Of a DNA stretch of 64,000 nucleotides, positions 84 to 60,000 are shown piece by piece. The translations under genes were made by a program, and so were the position numbers. Origin of the DNA: an uncultured Acidobacteriota bacterium. GTDB taxonomy: Bacteria > Acidobacteriota > Vicinamibacteria > Vicinamibacterales > UBA2999. A model generated the notes under the pieces. That model made no database searches. It saw only the letters and a program-made list of their open reading frames with translations, and was not told the origin of the DNA. The stretch is from positions 198,999 through 262,998 of the forward strand of contig CAVRUW010000009.1 in NCBI GenBank assembly GCA_963724485.1. The letters are read 5' to 3'. The stretch's first letter is position 1. Every line of letters begins with the position of its first letter.

Positions 84-3076
84 GAGCGCTTTCGCTTTCT
101 CGTAGACGATGAACTGCGAGGCTTTCGAATCGGGGAAGCGAGCCCAGCCCGAAGGAACTCCTGCTCGAGAAACGTGACCTGTCGGCTCAATGACTCGAGA
201 AACGGAGCTGCATCCGCGACGCGATGCGCACGCCCCAGCCGTTCGAGCTCGGCCGCCAGCCGACGCCCCTCTTGCCCGCCAATCGTCGCGATCGATCCCT
301 TCAAAGCATGCGCGGCCAGCGCGAGCGCTTCGTCATCACCCTTGTCGATCGCGCGCTTGATGGCTCGTAGCGACTTCGGACTGTCGGAGCGAAACAACGC
401 GACGATTTCCTTGAGCAATTCTCGATCGCCACCGGTATGCAGCAACGCCGCTTCTTCGTCGAAGATGACGGCCGAACGCTGGTCTGCCTCAGCAGGTTCA
501 GGGTCCTCGATGGGCTGGCGAGCGAATCCCTCGACCGTTGCAATGAGCTGATTCACGTCGATCGGTTTCGGAAGGTAGCCATCCATCCCGGCGTCGAGAC
601 AGCGCTCGCGGTCGCCCTTCATGGCATGCGCAGTGAGCGCGATGATTGGCAGGCGTGATGAGGTTGGGTGTTCGTTCGCGCGGATCGCGCGGGTCGCCTC
701 GATGCCGCCCATTTCCGGCATCTGAACGTCCATCAGGACGAGGTCGATGTCCTCTCTCGCCCTGCCGTCCAACGCGGCGAGGGCTTCGCGCCCATTCTCG
801 ACGGAACGGACGTCGTGACCACGCTTCTCGAGAAGCGTCGTCACGAGTTTCCGATTCACCAGATTGTCCTCGGCAACCAGTATCCGCAGCCGACGCTTCG
901 GCGCCTTGGCCGCTTGCGCCAGCGCTTGACTCACAATCTCGTCTTCCAAGGGCCGCCGCGTTGAAACGCCCACGCTGGAGGACAACGCCTCGAGAAGGTC
1001 GGAATGCTTGACTGGCTTGGTGAGGATGGCATCGACGCCGATGCGTCGACACCTTGCCGCATCTTCGGGACGGCCCACAGACGTCAGCATGACGATGGGT
1101 GTTTTCTCGAGGTCCTCATCGTCTTTGATGCTGCGAGCGAGTGCGAACCCGTCGACGTCGGGCATCTGGCAGTCGCAAACCACCACGTGAATCGGCTCGG
1201 CACGGAGCGCTTGACGCAGCCTGATCAGGGCCGTTGCCGAATCGGCCACTGATGCCGGCCGCATGTGCCAGCTCGCCAGCATCTCTTCGAGAATGCGTCG
1301 GTTCGTCGAGTTGTCGTCGACGATCAGCACTCTCAGCCCCTCGAGCGCCGCTGGACGGTCGATGACCGGGATCGCCGATGTGCGCTCGCGATCGAACACT
1401 GCGGTGAAATGAAACGTGCTGCCCTTTCCGACCGCGCTCTCGACCCACAGTCGACCACCCATCAGATCCACTAGCTTCCGCGCTATCGCGAGGCCGAGAC
1501 CCGTGCCGCCGTAGCGTCGGGTCGTCGAGCTATCGGCCTGGGTGAAGGCCTGGAAGATCTCTTCCTGTTTTTCCGGATCGATGCCTATTCCGGTGTCACG
1601 AACGCTAAACAACAGCGTGGCACTGGTCGGCATGAGCTTGCCGACTGACACCGAGAGCACTACCTCACCCTTGGACGTGAACTTGACGGCGTTACCAAGG
1701 ACGTTGATCAGGACCTGACGTAGTCGGCCCGCGTCTCCGACGAGGGCATTCGGAGCGCTCGCAGCGATGTCGACCGCCAGCTCGATCCCTTTTTCCGATG
1801 CGCGCAATGCCAACAGCTTCGCGGCATCGCCCACTGTTTCGCGCAAGTCGAACTCTTCGTGTTCGAGGTCGAGACGGCGGGCCTCGATCTTCGAAAAGTC
1901 GAGGATGTCGTTGATGATTTCGAGCAGCGACTCGCCGGAGGACCGGACCGTATTCAAGTATTCCTGTTGTTCGCCAGTGAGCGAGGTCCTGAGCGCCAGG
2001 TCTGTCATTCCGAGGATGGCATTGAGCGGCGTGCGGATCTCGTGGCTCATGTTGGCGAGAAACGCGCTTTTGGTTTCCGCTGCCTCTTCGGCCCGTCGTT
2101 TTGCGATCTCGAGCTCCTTGACGAGCTGAGCGAGCTCGACATGCGACGCTTCGAGGTCATGGGCATACCGCGACATCGTCTGCTCGGCAGCCTTGCGCTC
2201 GGTGATGTCGCGTGCCGCCGCGTAGAGCGCCTTCAACTCGGGAAACGTTGCGACCGACCACAGCAGCCAGCGGACGGTGCCGTCCTTGTGAAGGTAGCGA
2301 TTCTCGAAATAGACGAGGTCCTTTCCTTCGCGTAACCCTTGGGCGGCGGCCAGCGTCGCTTCGCGATCGTCGGGATGAACGAAGTCCATGTAGGGACGCG
2401 TGAGCAGATCCTCTTCGGTCCATCCGAGGACGCGTTCCCAAACCGGATTGACGCGTTTGAAATAGCCATCGAAGTCGGCGACACACAGCATGTCGAGGGA
2501 AAGTCTGAAGAACCGGTCGAGCTCGTCCTGCGCTCGGCGTCGATCGATGAACATCCCGATCTGATTGCCGACGGTCGTGAGCATCGCCAACAATTCTTGG
2601 TCGGGCTCGCGAATCTCGCGGCTGAAGAACTCCATGACGCCCAGGACCTCGTCGCGCAGCAGCACGGGAAATCCAAACGCCGCGTGGAGTCCCTCACGCG
2701 CACCAACGACAGCGCGAGGGAAGTTGGTGTCACGGGCGACGTCGGGAATCCACGCCGGTTCTGCAGTCGCCCAGACACGGCCGGGAAGGCCGATGCCGCG
2801 AGCAAACGTCATGCGGCGACTGACGGCGTTGAACTCGGGAAAGGCGGCAGACGCCGTCGTCCAAATCTCGGCGCAGCGCAGGGTGTCGGTTTCACGGTCG
2901 ACGATCCATAGCGCGCCGTGCTCCCAGCCGAGGGTCGAGCAGATGGTTTCGAGGATCTTGGGCGCTGCTTCCTCGAAGCTCGTCGCGTCGAGGAGGACAC
3001 GAGCGGCGACATACTCAGCGGTCAGCCGCCGCTCAGAAAACCGAGGGTCGCCGGGCCGTGCTGCCTCGCGGGTCAT
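80..3076 (-). CDS. hybrid sensor histidine kinase (GAF-PAS-HisKA-HATPase-REC-REC-HPt)
   Basis: 998-aa ORF with a GAF-like N-terminus and a PAS domain ([31 protein letters not shown]). It has the H-box [19 protein letters not shown] and ATPase boxes DTGIGI / GGTGLGLAI. Two receiver domains follow ([13 protein letters not shown]; [13 protein letters not shown]...[13 protein letters not shown]), then a C-terminal HPt motif HALKGS. Confidence 0.9.
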
Positions 3077-23274: not shown

Positions 23275-23577
23275 GCCACGATTGGGTGATTGGGCGAGTG
23301 AGGTGATTGCAGTGCGTGATTGGGGGATTGGGTGATTGCAGTAGGGGATTGGGTGATTACAGTGGGTGATTTGGTGATTGCAGGGGTGATTTGGTGATTG
23401 CGGGGATGGCCAGTGAGGGTAGCGGATAGGCAACTGGACGATTGAGAAACTGGGCAGTTCGAGGATAGCCGGTTTGGGCGAACCGGGCATTCTGCCTCAA
23501 TCGCTCAATCCAACCACCCAATCACTCAATCGCCATTGCAATCACCCACTCACCCACTCACCCAATCAATCAGTGTT
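23275..23577. repeat. about 300-bp composite inverted repeat built from about 20-nt GGTGATTGGGTGATTGCAG-type units
   Basis: The left arm (23275-23405) has about 6 degenerate tandem units. The right arm (23497-23577) is their reverse complement (caatcacccactcacccactcacccaatc). The central section is about 90 nt and contains the hairpin ccggtttgggcgaaccgg. Confidence 0.8.
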
Positions 23578-25540: not shown

Positions 25541-26023
25541 CTAGACTCCTGGTTCCGCGAGTGAGGCGAGAGCCGCGCTGTCGGTAAATGCGAGCGATTC
25601 CGAATTGACGCAGTATCTCAGGCCAGTCGGCCGTGGGCCGTCCTCGAAAACGTGGCCCAGGTGGCAGTCGCAGCGCGCGCAGAGAATCTCGACGCGACGC
25701 ATTCCGTAGGTTTGGTCCTCTTCGTTGACGACATTCTCGTCGGCGATCGGCTGGAAGAAGCTGGGCCAGCCGGTGCCCGAGTTGAACTTGGAGTCCGACG
25801 TAAACAGCGGAAGCTGACAGCAGATGCAGCTGTAGACGCCCTGCTTCTTGTTGTCGAGCAACGTGCCACAGAAGGGCCGCTCGGTGCCCTTTCCACGTGC
25901 GACCTCGTACTGCTCGCGCGTCAATTGCGCGCGCCACTCGGCGTCGCTCTTCTCGACCCGCGGCATTTCGATCGGCCCGACGAGCTGTCCGGCCGTGTTG
26001 AAGACTTTGACTCGTACGTTCAC
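25541..26023 (-). CDS. msrB: peptide-methionine (R)-S-oxide reductase
   Basis: Zn CxxC pairs (CICCQ, CARCDCHLGHVF), GWPSF, and catalytic RYCVNS. The GTG start has GGAGG 5 nt upstream. Confidence 0.9.
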   Translation of the reverse strand: MNVRVKVFNTAGQLVGPIEMPRVEKSDAEWRAQLTREQYEVARGKGTERPFCGTLLDNKKQGVYSCICCQLPLFTSDSKFNSGTGWPSFFQPIADENVVNEEDQTYGMRRVEILCARCDCHLGHVFEDGPRPTGLRYCVNSESLAFTDSAALASLAEPGV

Positions 26024-26032
26024 CGGTTCCTC

Positions 26033-27448
26033 CTAGAACAACCCGACTCTGCCGGCGACCGATGCGATCAGCTTGGCCGGGTCGAATCCCACACCACGAC
26101 GAAACACGGTCTCGACCTTGCGAATGTCAGCGATGGTCGTCGAGGGATCTCCCGCGACGACGACCAGGTCGGCCTGTTTGCCCGCCGCAATAGTTCCGAT
26201 GCTTTTCTCGCGACCGAGATACACGGCACCGTTGAGCGTGCTGATGCGGATCGCCTCGAGCGGCGTGAATCCCGCATCGACCAGCAACTCGACCTGACGT
26301 TGATTGGAGAAGCCCGGAATGACCCCACCCGCCCCTGTGGGATCCGTTCCCGCGATCAACATCCCTCCGGCCCGTGCGAACGCTCGCTCGAGCGCCATTG
26401 CCTTGGGCAGCAGCTTGACGTAGTTCGATGTCGCGTTTTTAGCGACGCGGGCATGCGTTTCCTCGAACTGCTGTTTGAGGGAAGGCGTCAGCACCTCGAG
26501 ACCTGGTGGCATCGGACGGCCGGGTGTAAACGTCTCGAACACTGTCAACGTCGATGTGAGGGCAACGCGCTTGTCGACCAGTTTCTGTACAAGCGATTTG
26601 AATGCGGCACCCGTTTCGTCGACCGCCATCAGCGCTTGCTGACCGCGGCCCTGACCAGGACAACTGTCAGGCTGTTTATCGGTCACAAAATCGGTCGCGG
26701 CGAGAAACCCATGCTCGAGATTGTCGATTCCGAGATCGGCAGCCTCGCTGTAAGTGACCGAACAGAGATGGCCGGTCACCTTCAAACCACGTTTGTGCGC
26801 TTCTTCAACGGTTGTCCCGAGAGCCGCGCGGGATATTTGCATGTACGCCTTGAACGACGTCGCACCCTGGCCCGCCCAGTACGCCACATGCTGGCGGGCA
26901 TCGTCCGCCGTTGTCACCGTGTTCATCTGCTGAAACTGGTTGCGACCGTTGACGTACGGTGCCGTGGCATCGATTGCCGGGCCGGCTTTTTCACCCGCCT
27001 CGATGGCCCGCTTCAGGTTCAAGTCCATATACCCGTTGAGATTCCCGCCGGTGCGCATTGTCGTCACGCCACCCGCGAGATAGAGACGGGTGAAGCTTTC
27101 GCCGAGTTGTCCGTAGACGCCAGGTCCCGTCGGGTAATAGAGATGCTCGTGCACCATCACGAGCCCGGGGATCACGCTCTTTCCGGTGAGGTCGATTACT
27201 TCGGCGCCTGCCGGGGGCGTCAGGCGTGATGAATCGCCGACCTCCGCGATCGTGCCGTCGCGAATGAGGATCGTTTGCTTCTCTCGCGCCGGCGCGCCCG
27301 TGCCATCGATGACGCGCGCATTGGTGAGCGCAATGATCGGGGCGCTGGTCCGCACGTACGCCTTCACTGCCTCCGAGGGTTGCGCTTGTTCGGCGCTCCC
27401 GGATGAGGTCAACAGAGCCAGCACTATGGGTGCAATCAGTCGTTTCAT
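26033..27448 (-). CDS. exported metal-dependent amidohydrolase family protein
   Basis: Signal peptide MKRLIAPIVLALLTSSGSA. It has an HxH metal motif (VMVHEHLYY) and amidohydrolase-like length and composition. Confidence 0.8.
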   Translation of the reverse strand: MKRLIAPIVLALLTSSGSAEQAQPSEAVKAYVRTSAPIIALTNARVIDGTGAPAREKQTILIRDGTIAEVGDSSRLTPPAGAEVIDLTGKSVIPGLVMVHEHLYYPTGPGVYGQLGESFTRLYLAGGVTTMRTGGNLNGYMDLNLKRAIEAGEKAGPAIDATAPYVNGRNQFQQMNTVTTADDARQHVAYWAGQGATSFKAYMQISRAALGTTVEEAHKRGLKVTGHLCSVTYSEAADLGIDNLEHGFLAATDFVTDKQPDSCPGQGRGQQALMAVDETGAAFKSLVQKLVDKRVALTSTLTVFETFTPGRPMPPGLEVLTPSLKQQFEETHARVAKNATSNYVKLLPKAMALERAFARAGGMLIAGTDPTGAGGVIPGFSNQRQVELLVDAGFTPLEAIRISTLNGAVYLGREKSIGTIAAGKQADLVVVAGDPSTTIADIRKVETVFRRGVGFDPAKLIASVAGRVGLF

Positions 27449-27454
27449 CGCTAC

Positions 27455-28153
27455 TCAGTCCAAGGCCAGGGAACCTGTATAGATCGCCATTCCGACGACT
27501 GCGTCCACGCCCATCTCATGAAGGGCGTCGATCTCCTCACGTGTCGTAATACCACCGGCGGCCGTCACCTTACGAGCGGTCGCGTCGCGCAGCACGCGAA
27601 TCGCGTCCATATCGGTGCCTTGCATCAGTCCCTCCTTGTCGACGTGTGTGTAGAGGAACTCACCGCAGTACGGATCCAGGGCCTTCACCGCCTGGACGCT
27701 CGAGATCGCCAGCGGTGTCCGCCATCCGTGAATGACAACCCGGCCTTCCCTGGCGTCAACCGCGGCGACGATCTTGTCCAGACCGACCGCATCGCGAAGG
27801 GCTTCGGCAAAGTCGAACTTGATCACGCTTCCGCCATCCGCCCCACGCCGGACGTCAAAGAACGCCGATCCCACGATCACCGCTTTCGCGCCCGCCGCCA
27901 GGACATCCTCGGCACGTCCCACCGATCGGATCCCACCACCCACGCGGCACGGAAGGCGTGTCGAAACGTGACGCACCAATTCATCATTGGTGCCCGTCCC
28001 CATCGCCGCATCCAGATCGATCAACTGGATGGCTGGAAACTTGGAGAACCGTTCGATCCAGCCGTCGAGATCATTCGATTCGATCGCGACCTTCTCACCT
28101 TGCACGAGCTGGACAACCTTACCGCCTTTGAGATCTATCGATGGAATCAGCAT
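27455..28153 (-). CDS. hisA: ProFAR isomerase (HisA)
   Basis: The N-terminus MLIPSIDLKGGKVVQLVQGE and the (beta/alpha)8 phosphate-binding motifs (GGGIRS, AAGGITT) are present. It is the last gene of the his cluster. Confidence 0.85.
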   Translation of the reverse strand: MLIPSIDLKGGKVVQLVQGEKVAIESNDLDGWIERFSKFPAIQLIDLDAAMGTGTNDELVRHVSTRLPCRVGGGIRSVGRAEDVLAAGAKAVIVGSAFFDVRRGADGGSVIKFDFAEALRDAVGLDKIVAAVDAREGRVVIHGWRTPLAISSVQAVKALDPYCGEFLYTHVDKEGLMQGTDMDAIRVLRDATARKVTAAGGITTREEIDALHEMGVDAVVGMAIYTGSLALD

Positions 28154-32547: not shown

Positions 32548-33435
32548 TTACAGCACGATCTTGTTCAACGGATATTCGACGATGCCTTGACCACCAGCGA
32601 TCTTCAGCTTGGGAATGAGATCGCGGACGGTCCGCTCTTCGATGATCGTGTTGACCGCCACCCATTCGGGATCGCTCAGCGACGAAATCGTCGGTCGCTG
32701 CAAGGCCGGCAGCAAGCCAAGGACCGACAGCAGATCGGTCTGCCTCACGTTGAGCATCAGCCCGACCCGGCCCTGCGCCTCGATGGCGGCTTGGAGTAGC
32801 AGCGCGATGTTTTCAATCTTGGTGCGCTTCCAGGAGTCACCGAGCGCCGTCTGGTTGCCAATCAGCTGCGTGTTCGATTCGATGACGGTGTCGAGAATTC
32901 GCAGCCGATTGGCCCGCAGCGTCGACCCCGTTTCAGTCGCTTCGACAATCGCGTCTGCCAACACGGGTGGTTTGACCTCGGTCGCGCCCCACGAGAATTC
33001 GACGTCGACAGTCATCCCCTTCCGCGTGAAGTAGTTCTTCGTCACGCGAACAAGTTCGGTCGCTATCCGTTTGCCGTTGAGATCCTCAGCGCTCTTGAAC
33101 GGGGAGTCTTCGGGCGCGGCGAGAACCCAACGCACCTTGCCAAAACTCTGTTTCGCATAGATCAGGTTCGCCACCGGGATGAGCGGAACCTGCTCAGGGT
33201 GGCCGAGCTGATGCTCCTCGATCCAATCAGCCCCCGTGAGCCCCGCATCGAGGACGCCATCCGCGACATAGCGCGCCATCTCCTGAGCGCGAATGAGCAT
33301 GCATTCGATCTCGGGGTCGTCGATTGCGGGAAAGTACGATCGCGTGCTGACGAGCACATTGAACCCGGCACGCTGGAACAGCTGCACCGTCGCGGCTTCC
33401 AGCGACCCTTTGGGGATTCCCAACCGCAGCTTCAT
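32548..33435 (-). CDS. hisG: ATP phosphoribosyltransferase, long form
   Basis: ORF trimmed to the ATG at 33435 ([20 protein letters not shown]), which overlaps the hisI stop (ATGA). About 295 aa including a C-terminal regulatory domain. Confidence 0.9.
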
Positions 33436-33743
33436 CGGGGTAACTCCACGAAGCAGGAACGCGCGCCGGTATGACAGACGTTGCCATCGCCCTCGCGGTG
33501 GGCCTTGATCAACACCGTGTCCTCGTCGCAATCGACCAGCAGTTGTGCGACCGCCAGTCGATTTCCCGACGTCTCGCCCTTGGTCCACAGCCGGTTTCGC
33601 GTCCGGCTGAAGAAGGTGACGTAGCCAGTTTCCTGAGTAATCTCCCACGCCCGTTCGTTCATGAAACCGACCATCAGCACTTCGCTGCTGACGGCGTCCT
33701 GGACGACGGCCGGGATCAATCCATCGAGTTTGCTGAAATCCAT
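33432..33743 (-). CDS. hisI: phosphoribosyl-AMP cyclohydrolase (monofunctional, no HisE domain)
   Basis: LIPAVVQD...[11 protein letters not shown]...[18 protein letters not shown]...DCDEDTVL...CHTG. Confidence 0.9.
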
Positions 33744-33750
33744 AGCCCTG

Positions 33751-33781
33751 AAAACAAAAAGCCCGCCGGGTTCGGCGGGCC
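33751..33781 (-). terminator. attenuator terminator of the his leader
   Basis: On the minus strand it reads GCCCGCCG-AACC-CGGCGGGC followed by TTTTTGTTTT, ending 7 nt before the hisI ATG. No upstream co-directional gene exists for it to terminate. Confidence 0.65.
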
Positions 33782-33811
33782 TGTGCTTCTCACGAAACGG
33801 TCGCGTTTGCC

Positions 33812-33883
33812 TTACACGCGCAGCCCTGCCGACCCGCTCGTGGAGCGGTGGTGATGGGTATGGTGCGCGTGGACGGGAAACAT
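33812..33883 (-). CDS. putative his operon leader peptide (hisL-like), MFPVHAHHTHHHRSTSGSAGLRV
   Basis: 24-codon ORF (ATG 33883, TAA 33814-33812) with 6 His codons in an 8-codon stretch. It lies between a candidate promoter and the terminator hairpin. Confidence 0.6.
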   Translation of the reverse strand: MFPVHAHHTHHHRSTSGSAGLRV

Positions 33884-33892
33884 GGAAGCCCC

Positions 33893-33921
33893 AGCCTATC
33901 CGAACCGCATCGAGAGATCAA
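33893..33921 (-). promoter_or_regulatory. candidate sigma70-like promoter for the his leader (TTGATC-17 nt-TAGGCT)
   Basis: Hexamers read on the minus strand, with the -10 ending 9 nt before the leader ATG. The match is weak and it is a visual call only. Confidence 0.25.
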
Positions 33922-33972
33922 ACGCGGCTGGTGCTCCAGTCTGCTAGAGTGTCGGCGAAGTCCTTCGTCGCC

Positions 33973-36900
33973 ATGCTCACGGCTGGCCAAACCCTTTCCC
34001 ACTTCAGGATCCTCGGCGAAATCAGCCGCGGCGGCATGGGGATCGTCTATCGCGCCTTCGACACGCGCCTCGAGCGGGAGATTGCGTTGAAGGTGCTGCC
34101 GCCGGCGCTCCTCGCCGACCCCGACCGCAAGCGGCGATTCGTCCAGGAAGCCCGCGCCGCGGCAGCCCTCAACCATCCCCACATCGGCGTCGTTCACGAG
34201 ATCGACGAAGACAGCGGCGTGACCTTCATCGCCATGGAGCTGATTGAAGGGCGCCTGCTCACCGACACGATGAGGCGCGAACGGTTGACGATCGGACGCA
34301 TCCTGACACTGGCGATCGAGATCGCCGGCGGGCTGACACGCGCGCACGAGAAAGGAATCGTGCACCGCGACCTCAAACCCGGCAACGTGATGGTGACCGA
34401 GGAAGGCCACTCCAAGATCATCGACTTCGGCCTGGCCAAGCTGGTCGAAACGCCCGAACAGCCAGAGACGGAGCGTGGAGAAACCACTGTCGCACATCGC
34501 ACGCAGCCCGGCGTGGTCATGGGGACCACGGCCTACATGTCGCCGGAGCAGGCGCGTGGCGACCCCGTGGACTACCGAACGGACGTGTGGAGCTTCGGCG
34601 TGCTGCTCTACGAGATGGTGACGGGGAGCCTTCCTTTTCAAGGTCGCACCGGCACCGACGTGGTCAGCGCGATCCTTCGCGATCCCACGCCACGATTTCC
34701 CACCGTCGGCGACGAGGTGCCGCGCGGGACCTTGGAACAGCTGCAGCGCGTGGTCGACCGCTGCCTCGAGAAGAATCCGCGCGAACGCTATCAGAACATG
34801 CGGGACACGGTCCTCGATCTGCGAGCGATCGATCGGCACTCGGATGCATCGATGGCTTCGCACGTTGTCGATCGACGAGCTCCGTCGCGCACGGTGGTGT
34901 GGGCGGCCATCGCCGGTGCCGCGCTATTGGCGCTCGGTGGCTGGTTGTTCATGACCAGAGCACCGAGGGAAGGCGTAGATGCGGAAAACGCTCGACCGGC
35001 GGCAACGTTCCGTCGATCGGTGGCGGTGATGGAGTTCCAGAACTTGTCGGGACGGCCCGAAGCCGATTGGCTTTCAACCGCACTCTCGGAGCTGTTCTCC
35101 TCCGAGCTGGCCGCGGGCGAGACGCTGCGCACGATCCCTGGCGAAACCGTCGCGCGGGGACGGATCGAACTCGCGCTCGCGCGCAACGAGAGCTTCGGGC
35201 GCGAAACGTTGGCGCGCATCCGGACGAATCTGGGATGTGACATCGTGCTGGTCGGTTCGTACCTGTCGATGGGAGAAGCGGGCGGGCGCAAACTCCGGCT
35301 CGACCTTCGTCTCCAGGATGCGGTCATGGGCGAAACGGTGGCGTCCATCACTGACCTCGGCAACGAGTCGGATCTGCTCGAGCTCGTGTCACGCACGGGG
35401 GCTCGACTGCGCGAACGCCTCGGTGTCGCCGGCCTCTCCGCCGAGTCTGTCGCCACGGTTCGCGCGTCGCTGCCGGCGAACCAGGAAGCCACGCGTCTCT
35501 ATGCCGAAGGGCTCTCGCGACTTCGGCAGTTCGAGACCATGAAGGCGCGCGATCTTCTCCAGCAGGCGGCGACGGCTGACCCGAAGCACTCGTTGATCCG
35601 GTCGGCGCTCAGCGAAGCCTGGTCGGGCCTTGGATACGAAGCCACAGCTCGCCGTGAAGCGCAGGTCGCATTCGATCTTTCCGGCCCCCTCTCACGCGAG
35701 AACAAGCTGCTGGTCGAAGCCCGCTATCGCGTCGTCACTCGCGATTGGGACCGGGCCATCGCGATCTTCGGGACCCTCGTCGAGTTCTTCCCTGACAATC
35801 TCGAGTACGGCCTGGGACTCGCCAGTGCCCAAACATCCGCATCCAGGGCCCAGGCCGCTATGGGAACGGTCGAGAAGCTGCGTCAATTGCCGACGCCGGC
35901 CTCGCTCGACCCCCGCATCGATCTCGCCGAGGCCTCCGCTGCCTATTCGCTGTCCGACTACAAACGGGCAGAAACGGCGGCCGCGCGGGCCGCAACGAAG
36001 GGTGCGGCACACGGTGCTCCGCTGCTCGTCGCCCGGGCGAAGCTGCAACTGGGCAACGCGACCGATCGGCTGGGCGACAAAAAGAGCGCCGTCGCGGCCG
36101 CGGCCGAAGCCCGGCAACTGTTCGCCTCGGCAGGCGATGTCGCTGGTGTCGCCCGCTCGCAATTCCTCCAGGCCGTGATCCTTCGCGCGCAGGGGAATCT
36201 GACCGAGGCGAAGGCACTGGCCGAACAGATTCTCGCCACCGGACGCGAGACCGGCGATCAGCGGGTGATGGGGAACGTGCTCACCCAGCTGGGCATCATT
36301 CAGTCGCAACAGGGCGACATCGCGGGCTCGCTCGTCCCGCTGCGCGAGGCGCTCGCGCTATATCGAAAGCTCGGTGACAACAACGCATTGGCCAGAGCGT
36401 TGAACAACCTCGCCGCATCGCTTCAGTTGAGCGGGCAGCTGGACGAAGCGGCGACGATGTACGACGAGAGTCTGACGCTCTACCGCGGGTCCGGCGAACT
36501 TAGCGGCGTGGGTTACGCGCTGAACAACCTGGCCGAGGTTCGCGAGACGAAGGCAGAACTCAAGGAAGCCAGGCGCCTGTACGAAGAGGCGTTGACCATT
36601 CGGCGCGATCTGGGCTTCAAGGAAGGGATTGGATACACCGGCACGCGGCTGGGTGCGCTGCTGATTGCGCAGGATGACTTCGCGGGTGCACGGGCGAGGC
36701 TCGAGGAGGCAATCAAGGTTCGCACCGACCTCAACGCCGAGGGCGACGTCGCCGACACTCGATTGTTTCTCGGGACGCTGGCCATCGAGGAGCGTCGCCC
36801 GGCCGAAGCCGAGCAACTGGCACGACAGGCGGCGCAGGTGTTCGAGAAGGAACGCATGACCGATCGCTCAGCGGCGGCACATGACCTGCTCGCACGCGCC

Positions 36901-37248
36901 CTGCTGGCCCAGAAAAAGAACGCCGAGGCGCGCGCGGTGATCGATCGTGGTCGCACGCTAGCCGGTGACACGCAGGATCGATACGTGCAATTCGCCGTTC
37001 GACTCACCGCCGCACGGGTGCAAGCCGAAGAAGGTCAGCTCAAGGAAGCGCATACTGCGCTTCAGGCACTCCTGGCGGATACGCAGAAAGCCGGCTTTAC
37101 AGAGGTCGGGCTGCACGTCCAGTACGCGCTGGGTGAACTCGAGTCACGACTCGGACAAGGTCGTGGCCGTTTGACGGCGCTGCAAAAGGACGCCGCCAAT
37201 CGAGGCTATTTGCTCATCGCTCGAAAGGCCGGCCAGCCGCGCTCCTGA
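33973..37248 (+). CDS. Hanks-type Ser/Thr protein kinase with a TM segment and a long C-terminal TPR region
   Basis: Start at the ATG at 33973 (MLTAGQTLSHFRILGEISRGGMGIVYRA). Motifs ALKVL, HRDLKPGNVMV, DFGLAK and YMSPEQ. The TM segment is VVWAAIAGAALLALGGWLF, followed by about 600 aa of TPR. Confidence 0.85.
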   Translation: MLTAGQTLSHFRILGEISRGGMGIVYRAFDTRLEREIALKVLPPALLADPDRKRRFVQEARAAAALNHPHIGVVHEIDEDSGVTFIAMELIEGRLLTDTMRRERLTIGRILTLAIEIAGGLTRAHEKGIVHRDLKPGNVMVTEEGHSKIIDFGLAKLVETPEQPETERGETTVAHRTQPGVVMGTTAYMSPEQARGDPVDYRTDVWSFGVLLYEMVTGSLPFQGRTGTDVVSAILRDPTPRFPTVGDEVPRGTLEQLQRVVDRCLEKNPRERYQNMRDTVLDLRAIDRHSDASMASHVVDRRAPSRTVVWAAIAGAALLALGGWLFMTRAPREGVDAENARPAATFRRSVAVMEFQNLSGRPEADWLSTALSELFSSELAAGETLRTIPGETVARGRIELALARNESFGRETLARIRTNLGCDIVLVGSYLSMGEAGGRKLRLDLRLQDAVMGETVASITDLGNESDLLELVSRTGARLRERLGVAGLSAESVATVRASLPANQEATRLYAEGLSRLRQFETMKARDLLQQAATADPKHSLIRSALSEAWSGLGYEATARREAQVAFDLSGPLSRENKLLVEARYRVVTRDWDRAIAIFGTLVEFFPDNLEYGLGLASAQTSASRAQAAMGTVEKLRQLPTPASLDPRIDLAEASAAYSLSDYKRAETAAARAATKGAAHGAPLLVARAKLQLGNATDRLGDKKSAVAAAAEARQLFASAGDVAGVARSQFLQAVILRAQGNLTEAKALAEQILATGRETGDQRVMGNVLTQLGIIQSQQGDIAGSLVPLREALALYRKLGDNNALARALNNLAASLQLSGQLDEAATMYDESLTLYRGSGELSGVGYALNNLAEVRETKAELKEARRLYEEALTIRRDLGFKEGIGYTGTRLGALLIAQDDFAGARARLEEAIKVRTDLNAEGDVADTRLFLGTLAIEERRPAEAEQLARQAAQVFEKERMTDRSAAAHDLLARALLAQKKNAEARAVIDRGRTLAGDTQDRYVQFAVRLTAARVQAEEGQLKEAHTALQALLADTQKAGFTEVGLHVQYALGELESRLGQGRGRLTALQKDAANRGYLLIARKAGQPRS

Positions 37249-53532: not shown

Positions 53533-54042
53533 GTGGCCGGTCGCCAGTCGGCCCGCGGCGCGAGTGCTTCTGTCCGATCCGGACCGACTACACTCCTCAC
53601 GGTGGCTGACGACTCGACGGCGCGGACACTCAGGGCTTTGCTTCTGCTCCTGACGGGCGGCGGGACGCTTGCCGTTTGCACCGATCTGCTGCTGCTCGGT
53701 CACTACAAGGACTCCAATCAGCTCATCCCTCTGACCGTCGCGGCCGCCGGCCTGCTCAGCATCGCCTGGGTCGCCACAGCGCCGCGTCCTGGCTCGCTGC
53801 GAACCTTCCAGTTTGTGATGTTGTGCTTCATTGGCACCGGCCTCATTGGCGTCACTCTGCACAGCAAAGGCGGCATCACAGCCCAGCGCGAAGTCGATCC
53901 GTCACTCGAGGGGCGAAATCTGTTCTGGAAAGTGGTGGCTGCCCCCGACCCACCCGTCCTGTCGCCGGGCATCATGGTGCAGCTGGGCCTCCTTGGGCTC
54001 GCCTATACGTATCGCCACCCGGGGCTGCGGGAGCGGGACTAG
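53533..54042 (+). CDS. hypothetical membrane protein (about 4 TM segments)
   Basis: Hydrophobic segments: ALLLLLTGGGTLAVCTDLLLL, LIPLTVAAAGLLSIAWV, FVMLCFIGTGLIGV, MVQLGLLGLAY. GTG start, which is uncertain. Confidence 0.5.
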   Translation: MAGRQSARGASASVRSGPTTLLTVADDSTARTLRALLLLLTGGGTLAVCTDLLLLGHYKDSNQLIPLTVAAAGLLSIAWVATAPRPGSLRTFQFVMLCFIGTGLIGVTLHSKGGITAQREVDPSLEGRNLFWKVVAAPDPPVLSPGIMVQLGLLGLAYTYRHPGLRERD

Positions 54043-57036: not shown

Positions 57037-60000
57037 ATGCGTAGGTTGTGGTTGCGTACTTTCCTCGCACTGTCGTGCGTGGTAGCGCCGGCGATAGCCG
57101 CGGCGCAGACGAGTAGCATCTCGGGTCAAGTCCGTGATGCCTCTGGTGCAGTCTTGCCGGGAGTTACGGTGGAGGTCGCCAGTCCGGCGCTCATCGAAAA
57201 GGTCCGCACGGCGGTGACCAACGATGAGGGTCGTTACTCCATCGTCAGCCTTCGACCAGGCACGTATACGGTGACCTTCACGCTTCCCGGGTTCGGTGTG
57301 GTGAAGCAGGAGGGGATCGAGCTCACGTCGGACTTCACCGCCAACGTGAATGCCGACATGAAGGTCGGCACGCTCGAAGAAACGATCACGGTGACTGGTG
57401 AATCACCCATCGTCGACACCCAGGCCATCACGCAGCGCCACGTGATGACCCGCGATGTGCTCGACGCCCTGCCCACGGGCCGCAACATTCAGGCAGTCGG
57501 CATCATGATCCCTGGCACGGCGCTCGCGCTTGGCGGCGGCGGCGCGCTGTCGCGCGACGTCGGCGGATCGGGCTCATTGCAGCAATCACCGTTGCAGTAC
57601 CGCGGCTCGGGCGACACGGTGCAGACCATCGAAGGACTGCGATTGAACAACTTGTGCGCGCAAGGTGCCTACAGCGGCGTCTACTGGAACGACGCCAGCT
57701 TCGAAGAGCTGAGTTACGTCACCGGCGCCGATTCGGCGGAAATGGGCCAGGGGGGCATGCGCGTCAACATGGTGCCGCGCGATGGCGCCAACCAGTTCCG
57801 CGGCCAGCTCATGGGCAACTTCGCCGGAGACTGGGGCTCTGACAACTGCGATTCGGGCGGAATCGGGCAGGCGTGCTCGCGATCGAACCTGAGCGGCAGC
57901 CGATCGTTCAATGCGAACAATTTCCTGACCAACGTCAGCGTGATCGAGAAGATCTGGGACTTCAACCCGTCGTTGGGCGGCCCGATCCTGCGCGACAAGC
58001 TGTGGTTCAACTACACGTTCCGCCACCAGGGCGTCGAGAAGACGGTCGCCAACAGCTACGCCGACTTGAATCCGTCACAGTTCATTTACGAGCCGGACTT
58101 CTCGAGCCCCGGTATCGACGACGGGCGAATCGTCAGCAATGCCGTTCGCGTGTCGTGGGCCGCTTCCGGCAAGGACAAGCTGTCCGTGTATCACGACAAC
58201 CAGCGTAAGTATCGCGACCACTGGGGCATCAACGCGACGCGCCCGCCGGACGCGACCGCCATTCAGGTCACACCGACCAGCTTCGTGAACGTCACGAAGT
58301 GGACCCGCACGCACACCAATCGCTTGCTGCTCGAAGCTGGCTTCGGCATCTACAACCAGGAATACACCGAGTTGTATCAGCCGATCGTCACTGGTCTCGA
58401 AGAAAAGGTGTGGGACCTCGAGGCGATTCGGAGATCGACCGTCTACAACGTGATCGACACGTCGAACAACCAGCAGACCAACGCGTTCTCCGCGCCTGCG
58501 GACCACTTCTCGGTGCTGCGGACGTTCATGGGCGCGGCATCCTACGTCACTGGTTCACACAACTTCCGGTTCGGCGCGACGCTGAGCAATGGCGACTGGC
58601 GCCTGATCGAAGCGTGGACCGGCGACGTGCAGCCGATCAACTTCAACGGTGGCGCGCCACAGTCGGCCACGCTGCGTCTGCCGAGGGATATGCGCAACGG
58701 CATCAAGCGCGATCTCGGCCTGTTCGTGCAGGATCGCTGGACCTTTAGTCGCATCACGCTGAACCTTGGGCTGCGGTACGACCAATTCATCGGCGAGACG
58801 CGCGAGAGTGAAGTCCTGCCGAATCGTTTCACCTTCACGGACCTGGCCAATGGCGTGAAGTACGGAGAATGCCCGGACGGCAAGGCGGGGCGCGGCTGCT
58901 ACGGCGAGGTGCAGAACTGGAAGGACATCTCTCCTCGCGTTGGCTTTGCGATGGACGTTTTCGGCGATGGCCGCACAGCTCTGAAAGCCAGCGTCGCTCG
59001 GTACGTCGCCGGCCAGAACGTCGCGGTGGCGCGAGAGATCAATCCTGTCGAAGGCCTCACTTCCACCGATACCCGCACGTGGACCGATCGGGACGGCAAC
59101 CGTCTGCCACTCGATGCCAGTGGTGCAATTCAGATCGACGAACTCGCACCCTCGACGTCAACGGCCACTTTCGGACGCAACGTGTCGACGACGTCCTACG
59201 ATCCTGGTGTGCTCAACGGCTGGCACAAGCGCGGCTACAACATGGAGTACACGATCGCGGCTCAGCATCAGCTCGCGGATCGAGTATCGGTGAACGGTGG
59301 CTATTACCGCCGCGAGTTCGGAAACCAGACGTTCACCGACGACCTGCGTTTCGATGCCAGCAGCTACAACTACTTCTGCCTCAACGCTCCGAGCGATGGC
59401 GATCTGCCCGGCGGCGGTGGCTATCAAGTGTGTGGACTCCCGGATTTGAAGCCGGAGATCTTTGCCCTGAACCTTCCGCAGAATAGCTTGATTCGCTTCT
59501 CCGATGACGTTGGCGGCGAAACCAACATCTATCAGGGATTCGACATCAACCTCGAGGGTCGATTCCGCAACGGCGCCTTCCTGAAAGGCGGCATCGGGGC
59601 AACCACGCGCACCTTCGACCAGTGCAATCTGCTCGCGGCTGGTCCGGAAGCCACAACGGTGGCGTTGACATCTCTTGGGACCGAGACGTACAGCGACGGC
59701 ACCAACTATTGTCACCGCGAGTACCCCTATCGGCCCGATGTGAAGCTCTCAGGCAACTATCCGTTGCCGTGGGGTATCCAGCTGGCCGGCACGTACCAGT
59801 TCAGCCGCGGTGTTCAGACTGGTGGCGCTGGACCTGCCATTCTTGCCAGCTACACGCTGAGCAACGCGCTGGTCACTCCGATCAAGGGGAGTGCGTGGAC
59901 CGGCGTGGCATCACGAACCGTCGCGTTGATTCGTGAAGGCCTCGAGTACGGCGAGCACAATTTGAGCCAGCTCGATATTCGACTCGGCAAGCGTTTCGAA

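Follow-up and report, generated by a model that had tools for sequence, protein, structure and literature searches.

The stretch of DNA analysed here (hereafter the window: 64,000 nucleotides of contig CAVRUW010000009.1, from an uncultured member of the Vicinamibacterales, Acidobacteriota) carries on its minus strand a histidine biosynthesis operon, hisIGDCBHFA, whose first gene, hisI, is preceded by a short open reading frame (ORF) rich in histidine codons and by a G+C-rich hairpin with a U-tract. HisI was recognised by NCBIfam model NF000768 (128.9 bits, for a cut-off of 126), hisG and hisD were identified 3′ of it by NCBIfam, and the ORFs that come next read, from their translations alone, as hisC, hisB, hisH, hisF and hisA, the genes overlapping or abutting one another and the operon reaching down to about position 27455. 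The gene on the other side of the leader region is a divergent Ser/Thr kinase gene (start 33973, plus strand), in agreement with the remark in a first-pass annotation of this DNA that no co-directional upstream gene would need a terminator at this place. The intergenic region between hisI and the kinase gene, 229 base pairs (bp) long, holds a promoter-like pair of hexamers, the leader ORF and the terminator (Table 1). Taken together, these features very probably constitute a classical histidine-responsive, ribosome-mediated transcription attenuator of the hisIGDCBHFA operon.

Table 1. Features of the his leader region and the first gene of the operon, in window coordinates.
Feature	Position	Strand	Remarks
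−35-like hexamer TTGATC	33916..33921	−	17-nt (nucleotide) spacer to the −10-like hexamer; relatives mostly TTGACA with 17-18 nt spacing
−10-like hexamer TAGGCT (TAnnnT)	33893..33898	−	9 nt 5′ of the leader ATG
Leader peptide ORF, 23 codons + TAA, MFPVHAHHTHHHRSTSGSAGLRV	33812..33883	−	ATG at 33883, TAA at 33814-33812
Regulatory His codons 5, 7, 8, 10, 11 and 12	33848..33871	−	Proposed ribosome stall sites; sequence reading
Segment 1, CACGCGCA, 5′ strand of the protector (anti-antiterminator)	33864..33871	−	His5-Ala6-His7 codons; pairs with 33822-33815 in minimum free energy folds
Inner hairpin CCGCUC-CAC-GAGCGG	33834..33848	−	Directly 3′ of the last His codon
Segment 2a, GGGUCGGCAGGGCU, antiterminator strand	33822..33835	−	Pairs with terminator 5′ arm and loop, 33781-33769
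Segment 2b, UGCGCGUG, 3′ strand of the protector	33815..33822	−	Ends at the stop codon
Intrinsic terminator hairpin (segments 3 and 4), AGGCCCGCCG-AACC-CGGCGGGCUU	33759..33782	−	Terminator scan and folding
Terminator U-tract UUUUUGUUUU	33751..33760	−	3′ of the hairpin; sequence and terminator scan
hisI, phosphoribosyl-AMP cyclohydrolase, first gene of hisIGDCBHFA	33432..33743	−	NCBIfam NF000768

The minus strand reads as had been annotated, with an ORF of 23 amino acids (aa), six of its codons in a stretch of eight specifying His, that starts 140 nt 5′ of the hisI ATG (33743), and with a G+C-rich hairpin and tract ending 7 nt before that ATG, the latter two being returned by a terminator scan as well. 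The six His residues fall within codons 5-12 and form an interrupted run, H-A-H-H-T-H-H-H. This is the sole site in the six frames of the 64 kb window with at least five His in eight codons, and dinucleotide shuffles of the window yielded 0.1 such sites, and 0.0 sites with at least six; the cluster is therefore beyond what chance would provide. The leader stop codon is separated by a 29-nt spacer from the terminator hairpin, a 10-bp G+C-rich stem with an AACC loop and a predicted energy of −19.6 kcal/mol. Its tract, TTTTTGTTTT (33760-33751), is followed by the seven nucleotides CAGGGCT and then by the hisI ATG, a weak Shine-Dalgarno (SD)-like AGGG being the only ribosome-binding motif of hisI in the window.

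When folded alone, the leader ORF forms a helix between CACGCGCA and UGCGCGUG, a CCC/GGG pairing and an inner hairpin with arms at 33848-33843 and 33839-33834, the 3′ half of which overlaps the start of the antiterminator strand. Together, these pairings sequester GGGUCGGCAGGGCU. The first-pass annotation had pointed to the CCGCTC/GAGCGG hairpin as the sequestering element, and this hairpin is indeed present, the main protector, that is the CACGCGCA/UGCGCGUG helix, having been overlooked. It had also named an antiterminator segment, GGGTCGGCAGGGCTG, which exists but occupies 33835-33821 rather than 33838-33824, an offset of 3 nt. The proposed pairing of this segment with the 5′ arm of the terminator is borne out; to call it nearly identical to the 3′ side of the terminator was loose wording, GGGTTCGGCGGGCCTG being the reverse complement of the 5′ arm and the loop.

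The alternative structures were compared in folds of the nascent transcript, for which the RNA was truncated before the 3′ arm of the terminator and the ribosome was modelled as a mask. These folds, a check that the annotation itself had suggested, switch with the position of the ribosome. With no ribosome, the protector forms and the terminator 5′ arm is essentially free, and it is free also with the ribosome at the stop codon; with a stalled ribosome covering nt 1-33, 1-39 or 1-48, 33835-33822 pairs with 33781-33769. The antiterminator duplex thus formed amounts to −20.5 kcal/mol, and the stabilisation that the window's 5′ arm gains from upstream pairing, −12.3 kcal/mol, is equalled by only 3 of 100 shuffles.

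The same arrangement is found in relatives of this genome. The comparison set consisted of the best 80 of roughly 600 hisI-linked loci, comprising 64 assessable acidobacterial loci, 13 labelled as other taxa and 3 that are cut too close to hisI. The closest relatives of the window's HisI belong to the Vicinamibacterales, with identities of up to 82%. The search upstream of related his operons for a His-run ORF with a terminator, another of the proposed checks, gave a clear answer, since a His-rich short ORF, together with a terminator, lies directly 5′ of hisI in at least 62 of the 64 assessable acidobacterial loci (Vicinamibacterales and Terriglobia). Fifty-eight of those loci, which together with the window make up the 59 loci considered below, show 4-7 His in eight codons together with a distinct hairpin and U-tract; the leaders of L006, L027, L010 and L031 were recovered by a covariance model, and in L024 promoter and terminator are the same and the His ORF is weaker. 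Across the roughly 480 kb of sequence in these loci, 58 of the 66 His-dense segments lie directly 5′ of hisI. A His-rich leader was present in none of the 13 non-acidobacterial hisI loci from the same search (11 labelled Bacteroidota or, in one case, unclassified, one Chloroflexota and one Woesearchaeota), and in many of the Bacteroidota-type loci hisI comes after a hisF-like ORF.

The covariance model (R1) was built from an alignment (A3) of 26 Vicinamibacterales leaders from which the window was excluded. Its only significant match in the window, at 33751-33883 on the minus strand, spans model positions 1-147 of 147 with 77.4 bits (E = 1.6e-17), and the model also detects the Terriglobia leaders, with E values of 2e-9 to 2e-3. 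A weak second match in the window, at 53692-53819 on the plus strand, was taken as chance because it lies inside a coding ORF and is not accompanied by a terminator.

A few loci call for separate mention. L053, from the Acidobacteriaceae metagenome-assembled genome (MAG) CAXUDF010000008.1, is the sole assessable acidobacterial locus with neither a His-rich leader ORF nor a match to R1. At its positions 2670-3000, 5′ of hisI, one finds TTGACA as a promoter-like element and, in addition, a long G+C-rich stem-loop (GGGCCCGCC...GGCGGGCCC) with a T-rich run behind it; the locus may carry a different or degenerate leader. In L010 (positions 2012-3000; Vicinamibacterales MAG CAWERD010000002.1), the leader (R1 match at 2012-2147, 64 bits) lies about 850 nt from hisI, and the 330 nt directly 5′ of hisI are made up of a tandem repeat of about 95 bp (gattgccgctaacaacgccgagcgaccgaaggtcgcgaaggcacaggtcg...) in at least three copies; a repeat element seems to have been inserted, or to have expanded, 3′ of the attenuator. 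L002 (CAZGLC010000124.1) is labelled ‘uncultured Bifidobacteriaceae’ and encodes a HisI 82% identical to that of the window behind a typical Vicinamibacterales-type his leader; the label is probably a binning error. Another surprising label is that of L050, ‘Woesearchaeota archaeon’, the hisI of which is of the bacterial type and 65% identical to that of the window.

Conservation extends to the pairing potential of the RNA. In a per-locus test, the stabilisation of the terminator 5′ arm by upstream pairing was computed for the 59 loci. The mean value was −13.5 kcal/mol with the ribosome stalled on the His codons, as compared with −5.3 kcal/mol with no ribosome, −5.5 kcal/mol with the ribosome at the stop codon and −7.2 kcal/mol when, in the stalled state, segment 2 was dinucleotide-shuffled; in 42 of the 59 loci, the real antiterminator was equalled by no more than 5 of 100 shuffles. 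The antiterminator is thus seen only when the His codons are masked, in the window as well as across the 59 loci, which is the 1:2, 2:3 and 3:4 pairing logic put forward in the first-pass annotation.

When the own segment 2 of each locus was compared with permuted terminator arms, none of 5000 permutations was as good in the Vicinamibacterales and 19 of 5000 were in the Terriglobia. Own-partner pairing thus beats permuted pairing, and the antiterminator therefore co-evolves with the terminator, as exemplified by GUCAGCGG with CCGCUGAC and by GCCGGCGG with CCGCCGGC. In the Vicinamibacterales alignment (A1), the terminator has 95.2% of cells paired, with compensatory changes, and the protector (1:2) has 81.9%, falling to 9-11% when slid by one position, with double-sided changes in seven of its eight pairs. 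In the Terriglobia alignment (A2), the terminator reaches 94.2% and the antiterminator 93.5% in register, compared with 27-60% when slid. The covariation that had been looked for is accordingly found in both helices that compete for segment 2: changes in the antiterminator strand go along with changes in the terminator of the same locus, and the protector helix co-varies as well. In the Terriglobia, segment 1 (codons 2-5, e.g. CUUCGCUGAC) mimics the terminator 5′ arm and competes for the same strand. The inner hairpin of relatives occupies the same position with another sequence, such as CCGUUC/GAACGG in L001 and GGCCAC/GUGGCC in L003.

The early reading of the element as a ribosome-mediated attenuator is therefore supported in all parts that are open to computation. 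A putative promoter directly 5′ of the leader ATG had been overlooked. This promoter is recognised only through the comparison of the 59 loci. In 53 of them, the leader start codon is preceded, at a distance of 6-11 nt (mode 9), by a TAnnnT hexamer, and in most of those 53 loci TTGACA or a one-mismatch hexamer is found 17-18 nt further 5′; L004, L055 and L058 are apparent exceptions, which conform after reassignment of the start codon. An SD-like motif between the −10 hexamer and the leader start is absent from the window and, of the 59 loci, present in L046 alone. Judging from promoter spacing, the 5′ untranslated region would measure 0 to about 4 nt across the loci and 0-3 nt in the window. 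Given a promoter that abuts the start codon and the lack of an SD-like motif, the leader mRNA is probably leaderless or nearly so. TAnnnT near a start codon is a recognised signature of leaderless genes; in three genomes of Acidobacteria, about 13% of the genes were predicted to be leaderless (PMC3160421). The same promoter-plus-start-codon pattern has three matches in the window, one of which is the his leader; the other two, at 23374 on the plus strand (7-aa ORF) and at 58194 on the minus strand (39-aa ORF), are without an amino-acid run and were set aside.

From this arrangement we infer promoter use, translation of the leader ORF, ribosome stalling and kinetic competition between the helices, and we propose the following course of events. 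Transcription would start from the sigma-70-type promoter at the leader AUG or a few nucleotides 5′ of it. When His-tRNA is plentiful, the ribosome would reach the UAA and cover segment 2 (33835-33815). The outcome would be the same if no ribosome is loaded, because segment 2 would then be locked in the CACGCGCA/UGCGCGUG protector and the inner hairpin. With segment 2 either covered or locked, the 5′ arm of the terminator would be free, the hairpin and the U-tract would form, and transcription would end about 10 nt 5′ of hisI. When His-tRNA is scarce, the ribosome would stall on the six His codons, the protector would melt and GGGUCGGCAGGGCU would be freed, so that it could pair with the terminator 5′ arm and loop upon their transcription. 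The terminator being blocked, RNA polymerase would read into the operon, which would be switched on when histidine is short.

Several points weigh against this interpretation. The case for an attenuator is drawn from sequence comparison and predicted folds, and the ViennaRNA energies used in the latter ignore pseudoknots. Wherever the ribosome is placed, the terminator is the favoured equilibrium structure of the full-length RNA (for instance, with nt 1-48 masked, at −36.1 against −30.2 kcal/mol); equilibrium folds of the full leader with ribosome masks, which were tried as a way to see the switch, never removed the terminator, and the switch is visible only in nascent folds. The equilibrium preference implies that kinetics would have to decide, as they do in the trp and his systems of the classical kind and in those of Escherichia coli. 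RNAalifold, applied to a MAFFT alignment, recovered the terminator as the only helix. In the Vicinamibacterales alignment, column-wise pairing of the antiterminator is modest, 63% for the whole helix and 88.5% for its 4-bp core; the count is blurred because the pairing register differs between sequences, and the per-locus energy and permutation tests were used in its place. In the Terriglobia alignment, it is the protector that is less well supported, with 73.5% of cells paired and zero double-sided changes. As for the promoter, a consensus promoter scan reported nothing, because TAGGCT matches TATAAT at only three of six positions; in the window, the −35 hexamer has only four matches of six, and the ATG lies 9 nt from the −10 hexamer, farther than the 6-7 nt that are canonical for a strictly leaderless start.

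The leader peptide might also sense histidine and yet act mainly on the translation of hisI, or via Rho, instead of on intrinsic termination. The hairpin of the window ends 7-15 nt 5′ of the hisI AUG, with its U-tract ending 7 nt before it, and the SD-like AGGG of hisI is weak, such that the structure could keep ribosomes from binding to read-through transcripts; Rho could be recruited by a leader that is not translated, and translational attenuation by leaderless short ORFs has been documented in mycobacteria (10.1101/834739). This proximity is, however, not a conserved trait. Across the loci, anything between 4 and 244 nt (median 40) separates the terminator from hisI, so that masking of the ribosome-binding site is not conserved, whereas the geometry of leader and terminator is constrained, with leaders of 20-31 aa (two are longer; median 24 aa) and a median of 27 nt between stop codon and terminator. 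The combination of a constrained leader with a variable gap therefore argues for termination control rather than for ribosome-binding-site masking, and essentially all loci possess a canonical terminator, made up of a G+C-rich hairpin and a U-tract. We accordingly regard an effect exerted mainly on translation or via Rho as unlikely.

Lower still is the probability that we would assign to the short ORF encoding a micro-protein, rich in His and with a function of its own such as metal binding, of which the hairpin would merely be the terminator. Binding of Ni or Zn is possible for His-rich peptides, and the position of the ORF is conserved; outside the His run, however, the peptide is not, and its variants (GLRV, GLCV, GLHV, RSCA) are such that the RNA pairing is kept. 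Moreover, the ORF always lies directly 5′ of hisI and in the same orientation, and the strand that codes for the C-terminus of the peptide is complementary to the terminator 5′ arm and co-varies with it, while a stand-alone gene would have no need of an antiterminator. A chance His-codon ORF beside an ordinary or leftover terminator, or a T-box, riboswitch or small RNA, is the least credible explanation and is effectively refuted by conservation. In its favour are weak, sub-threshold Rfam matches to two Burkholderia small RNAs (BcKCsr7 and anti-hemB). Against it, no Rfam family reaches its gathering score, no match to the T-box (RF00230) appears in 33400-34300 even at E ≤ 10, shuffles give 0.0-0.1 such His clusters per 64 kb, and about 60 species from two classes share the full set of elements.

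The Rfam scan of 33400-34300 at E ≤ 10 returned only sub-threshold matches, to BcKCsr7, Phe_leader, anti-hemB, Trp_leader and RNAI. The match to BcKCsr7 scored 24.1 bits (E = 0.014) for a gathering score of 59 and that to anti-hemB had E = 0.2, the span being 33756-33880 on the minus strand. In the three alignments that were inspected, most matching positions lie inside the terminator hairpin, and the BcKCsr7 and anti-hemB matches are probably driven by the G+C-rich helices and the terminator.

The proposed attenuator can be compared with several known systems. In E. coli, hisL contains seven consecutive His codons and has a conventional 5′ untranslated region with an SD sequence. Like enterobacterial hisL (RF00514), the acidobacterial leader combines a His-codon short ORF 5′ of the his operon with mutually exclusive protector, antiterminator and terminator helices, between which the position of the ribosome would decide, and with an intrinsic terminator just 5′ of the first structural gene. 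The two differ in that no sequence or structure similarity is detectable, the His_leader model RF00514 giving no match in 33400-34300 even at E ≤ 10, and in that the His run, uninterrupted in E. coli hisL, here reads H-A-H-H-T-H-H-H. Furthermore, the first gene is hisG there and hisI here, and in the present leader the promoter abuts a start codon that has no SD, while the protector consists of two nested helices.

His leader attenuators have been described in Proteobacteria, Firmicutes and Actinobacteria (PMC9413887, PMC2965389, PMC4833913). Those of Firmicutes were predicted for hisZ/hisS of the Bacillus cereus group, for Peptostreptococcaceae and for Erysipelotrichales (PMC9413887, PMC2965389); they likewise are lineage-specific His-codon ORFs with a terminator and an antiterminator, brought to light by comparative genomics and unmatched by RF00514. 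They differ from the leader described here in belonging to another phylum, in their unrelated sequence and in having 3-5 consecutive His codons, and promoter-proximal or leaderless starts were not reported for them. With sensory ORFs of Actinobacteria, such as the ilvB leader of Corynebacterium glutamicum, which has no ribosome-binding site, and the poly-Cys short ORFs of mycobacteria, our leader shares the lack of an SD and would share a location at or near the 5′ end of the transcript. Leaderless leader peptides are reportedly found at C. glutamicum attenuators. A sensory ORF without an SD is thus not new in kind, being known in Actinobacteria. Unlike those actinobacterial ORFs, the present one would sense His, its leaderless status being judged from promoter spacing; and whereas the mycobacterial Cys system acts on translation via sequestering of the SD, the output here would be an intrinsic terminator. 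The His-specific T-box of Firmicutes and Actinobacteria, finally, is also a terminator/antiterminator switch that lies 5′ of his genes and responds to the charging of His-tRNA, but it recognises uncharged tRNA by direct binding and contains no leader ORF, in contrast to the His-codon ORF found here.

No his leader attenuator in Acidobacteria/Acidobacteriota was found in the searchable literature, the scope of which does not include Lopatovskaya et al. 2010 (Mol Biol 44:128). Together with the scan with Rfam leader models, in which no family was matched, this is consistent with the suggestion in the first-pass annotation that no such element had been described for genomes of acidobacterial type.

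Some features of the operon and its surroundings may be added. The hisI gene is monofunctional, encoding a cyclohydrolase of 103 aa and nothing else, and among the ORFs of the operon we saw no hisE. The ATG of hisG (32548-33438, minus strand) lies at 33438, so that hisG shares 7 nt with the end of hisI (33432), and the overlap between hisD and hisG is similar; this suggests translational coupling along the operon. On the same strand, 3′ of hisA and with very short gaps, the translations read as an amidohydrolase-like ORF (26033-27448) and an msrB-like ORF (25541-26023), which may be co-transcribed with the his genes and under the same attenuator. Two long ORFs run across the leader region, one of 1195 aa (33661-37248, plus strand), which extends the kinase gene 5′ of its likely ATG at 33973, and an antisense one of 357 aa (33790-34863, minus strand). 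Both are typical artefacts of high G+C content, and they could make automatic annotation bury the leader.

The mechanism proposed here is a textbook device, and in this sense the advance is incremental. Gene regulation in the Acidobacteriota is, however, almost unstudied, and a 5′ leader conserved in two classes of the phylum now gains a concrete proposal as to its function, by which the range of His leader-peptide attenuation would be widened past Proteobacteria, Firmicutes and Actinobacteria. The covariance model, together with a signature made up of the promoter, a start codon without SD, the His run and a terminator about 27 nt past the stop codon, could be used to annotate such leaders in many metagenome-assembled acidobacterial genomes. 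The leader also probably exemplifies a promoter-proximal start of the leaderless type in the Acidobacteriota, and it suggests that intrinsic terminators and transcription-translation coupling operate in these bacteria. More tentatively, and as a possibility that in our view falls somewhat short of being probable, the leaders may represent a phylum-wide family of his attenuators that is not detectably related to proteobacterial hisL and whose sensory ORF is leaderless or near-leaderless. If this is true, a ribosome that loads directly on the nascent 5′ end would establish the coupling of transcription and translation on which the terminator/antiterminator switch depends, and these leaders would offer a natural test-bed, in a little-studied phylum, for the synchrony of leaderless initiation with RNA polymerase.

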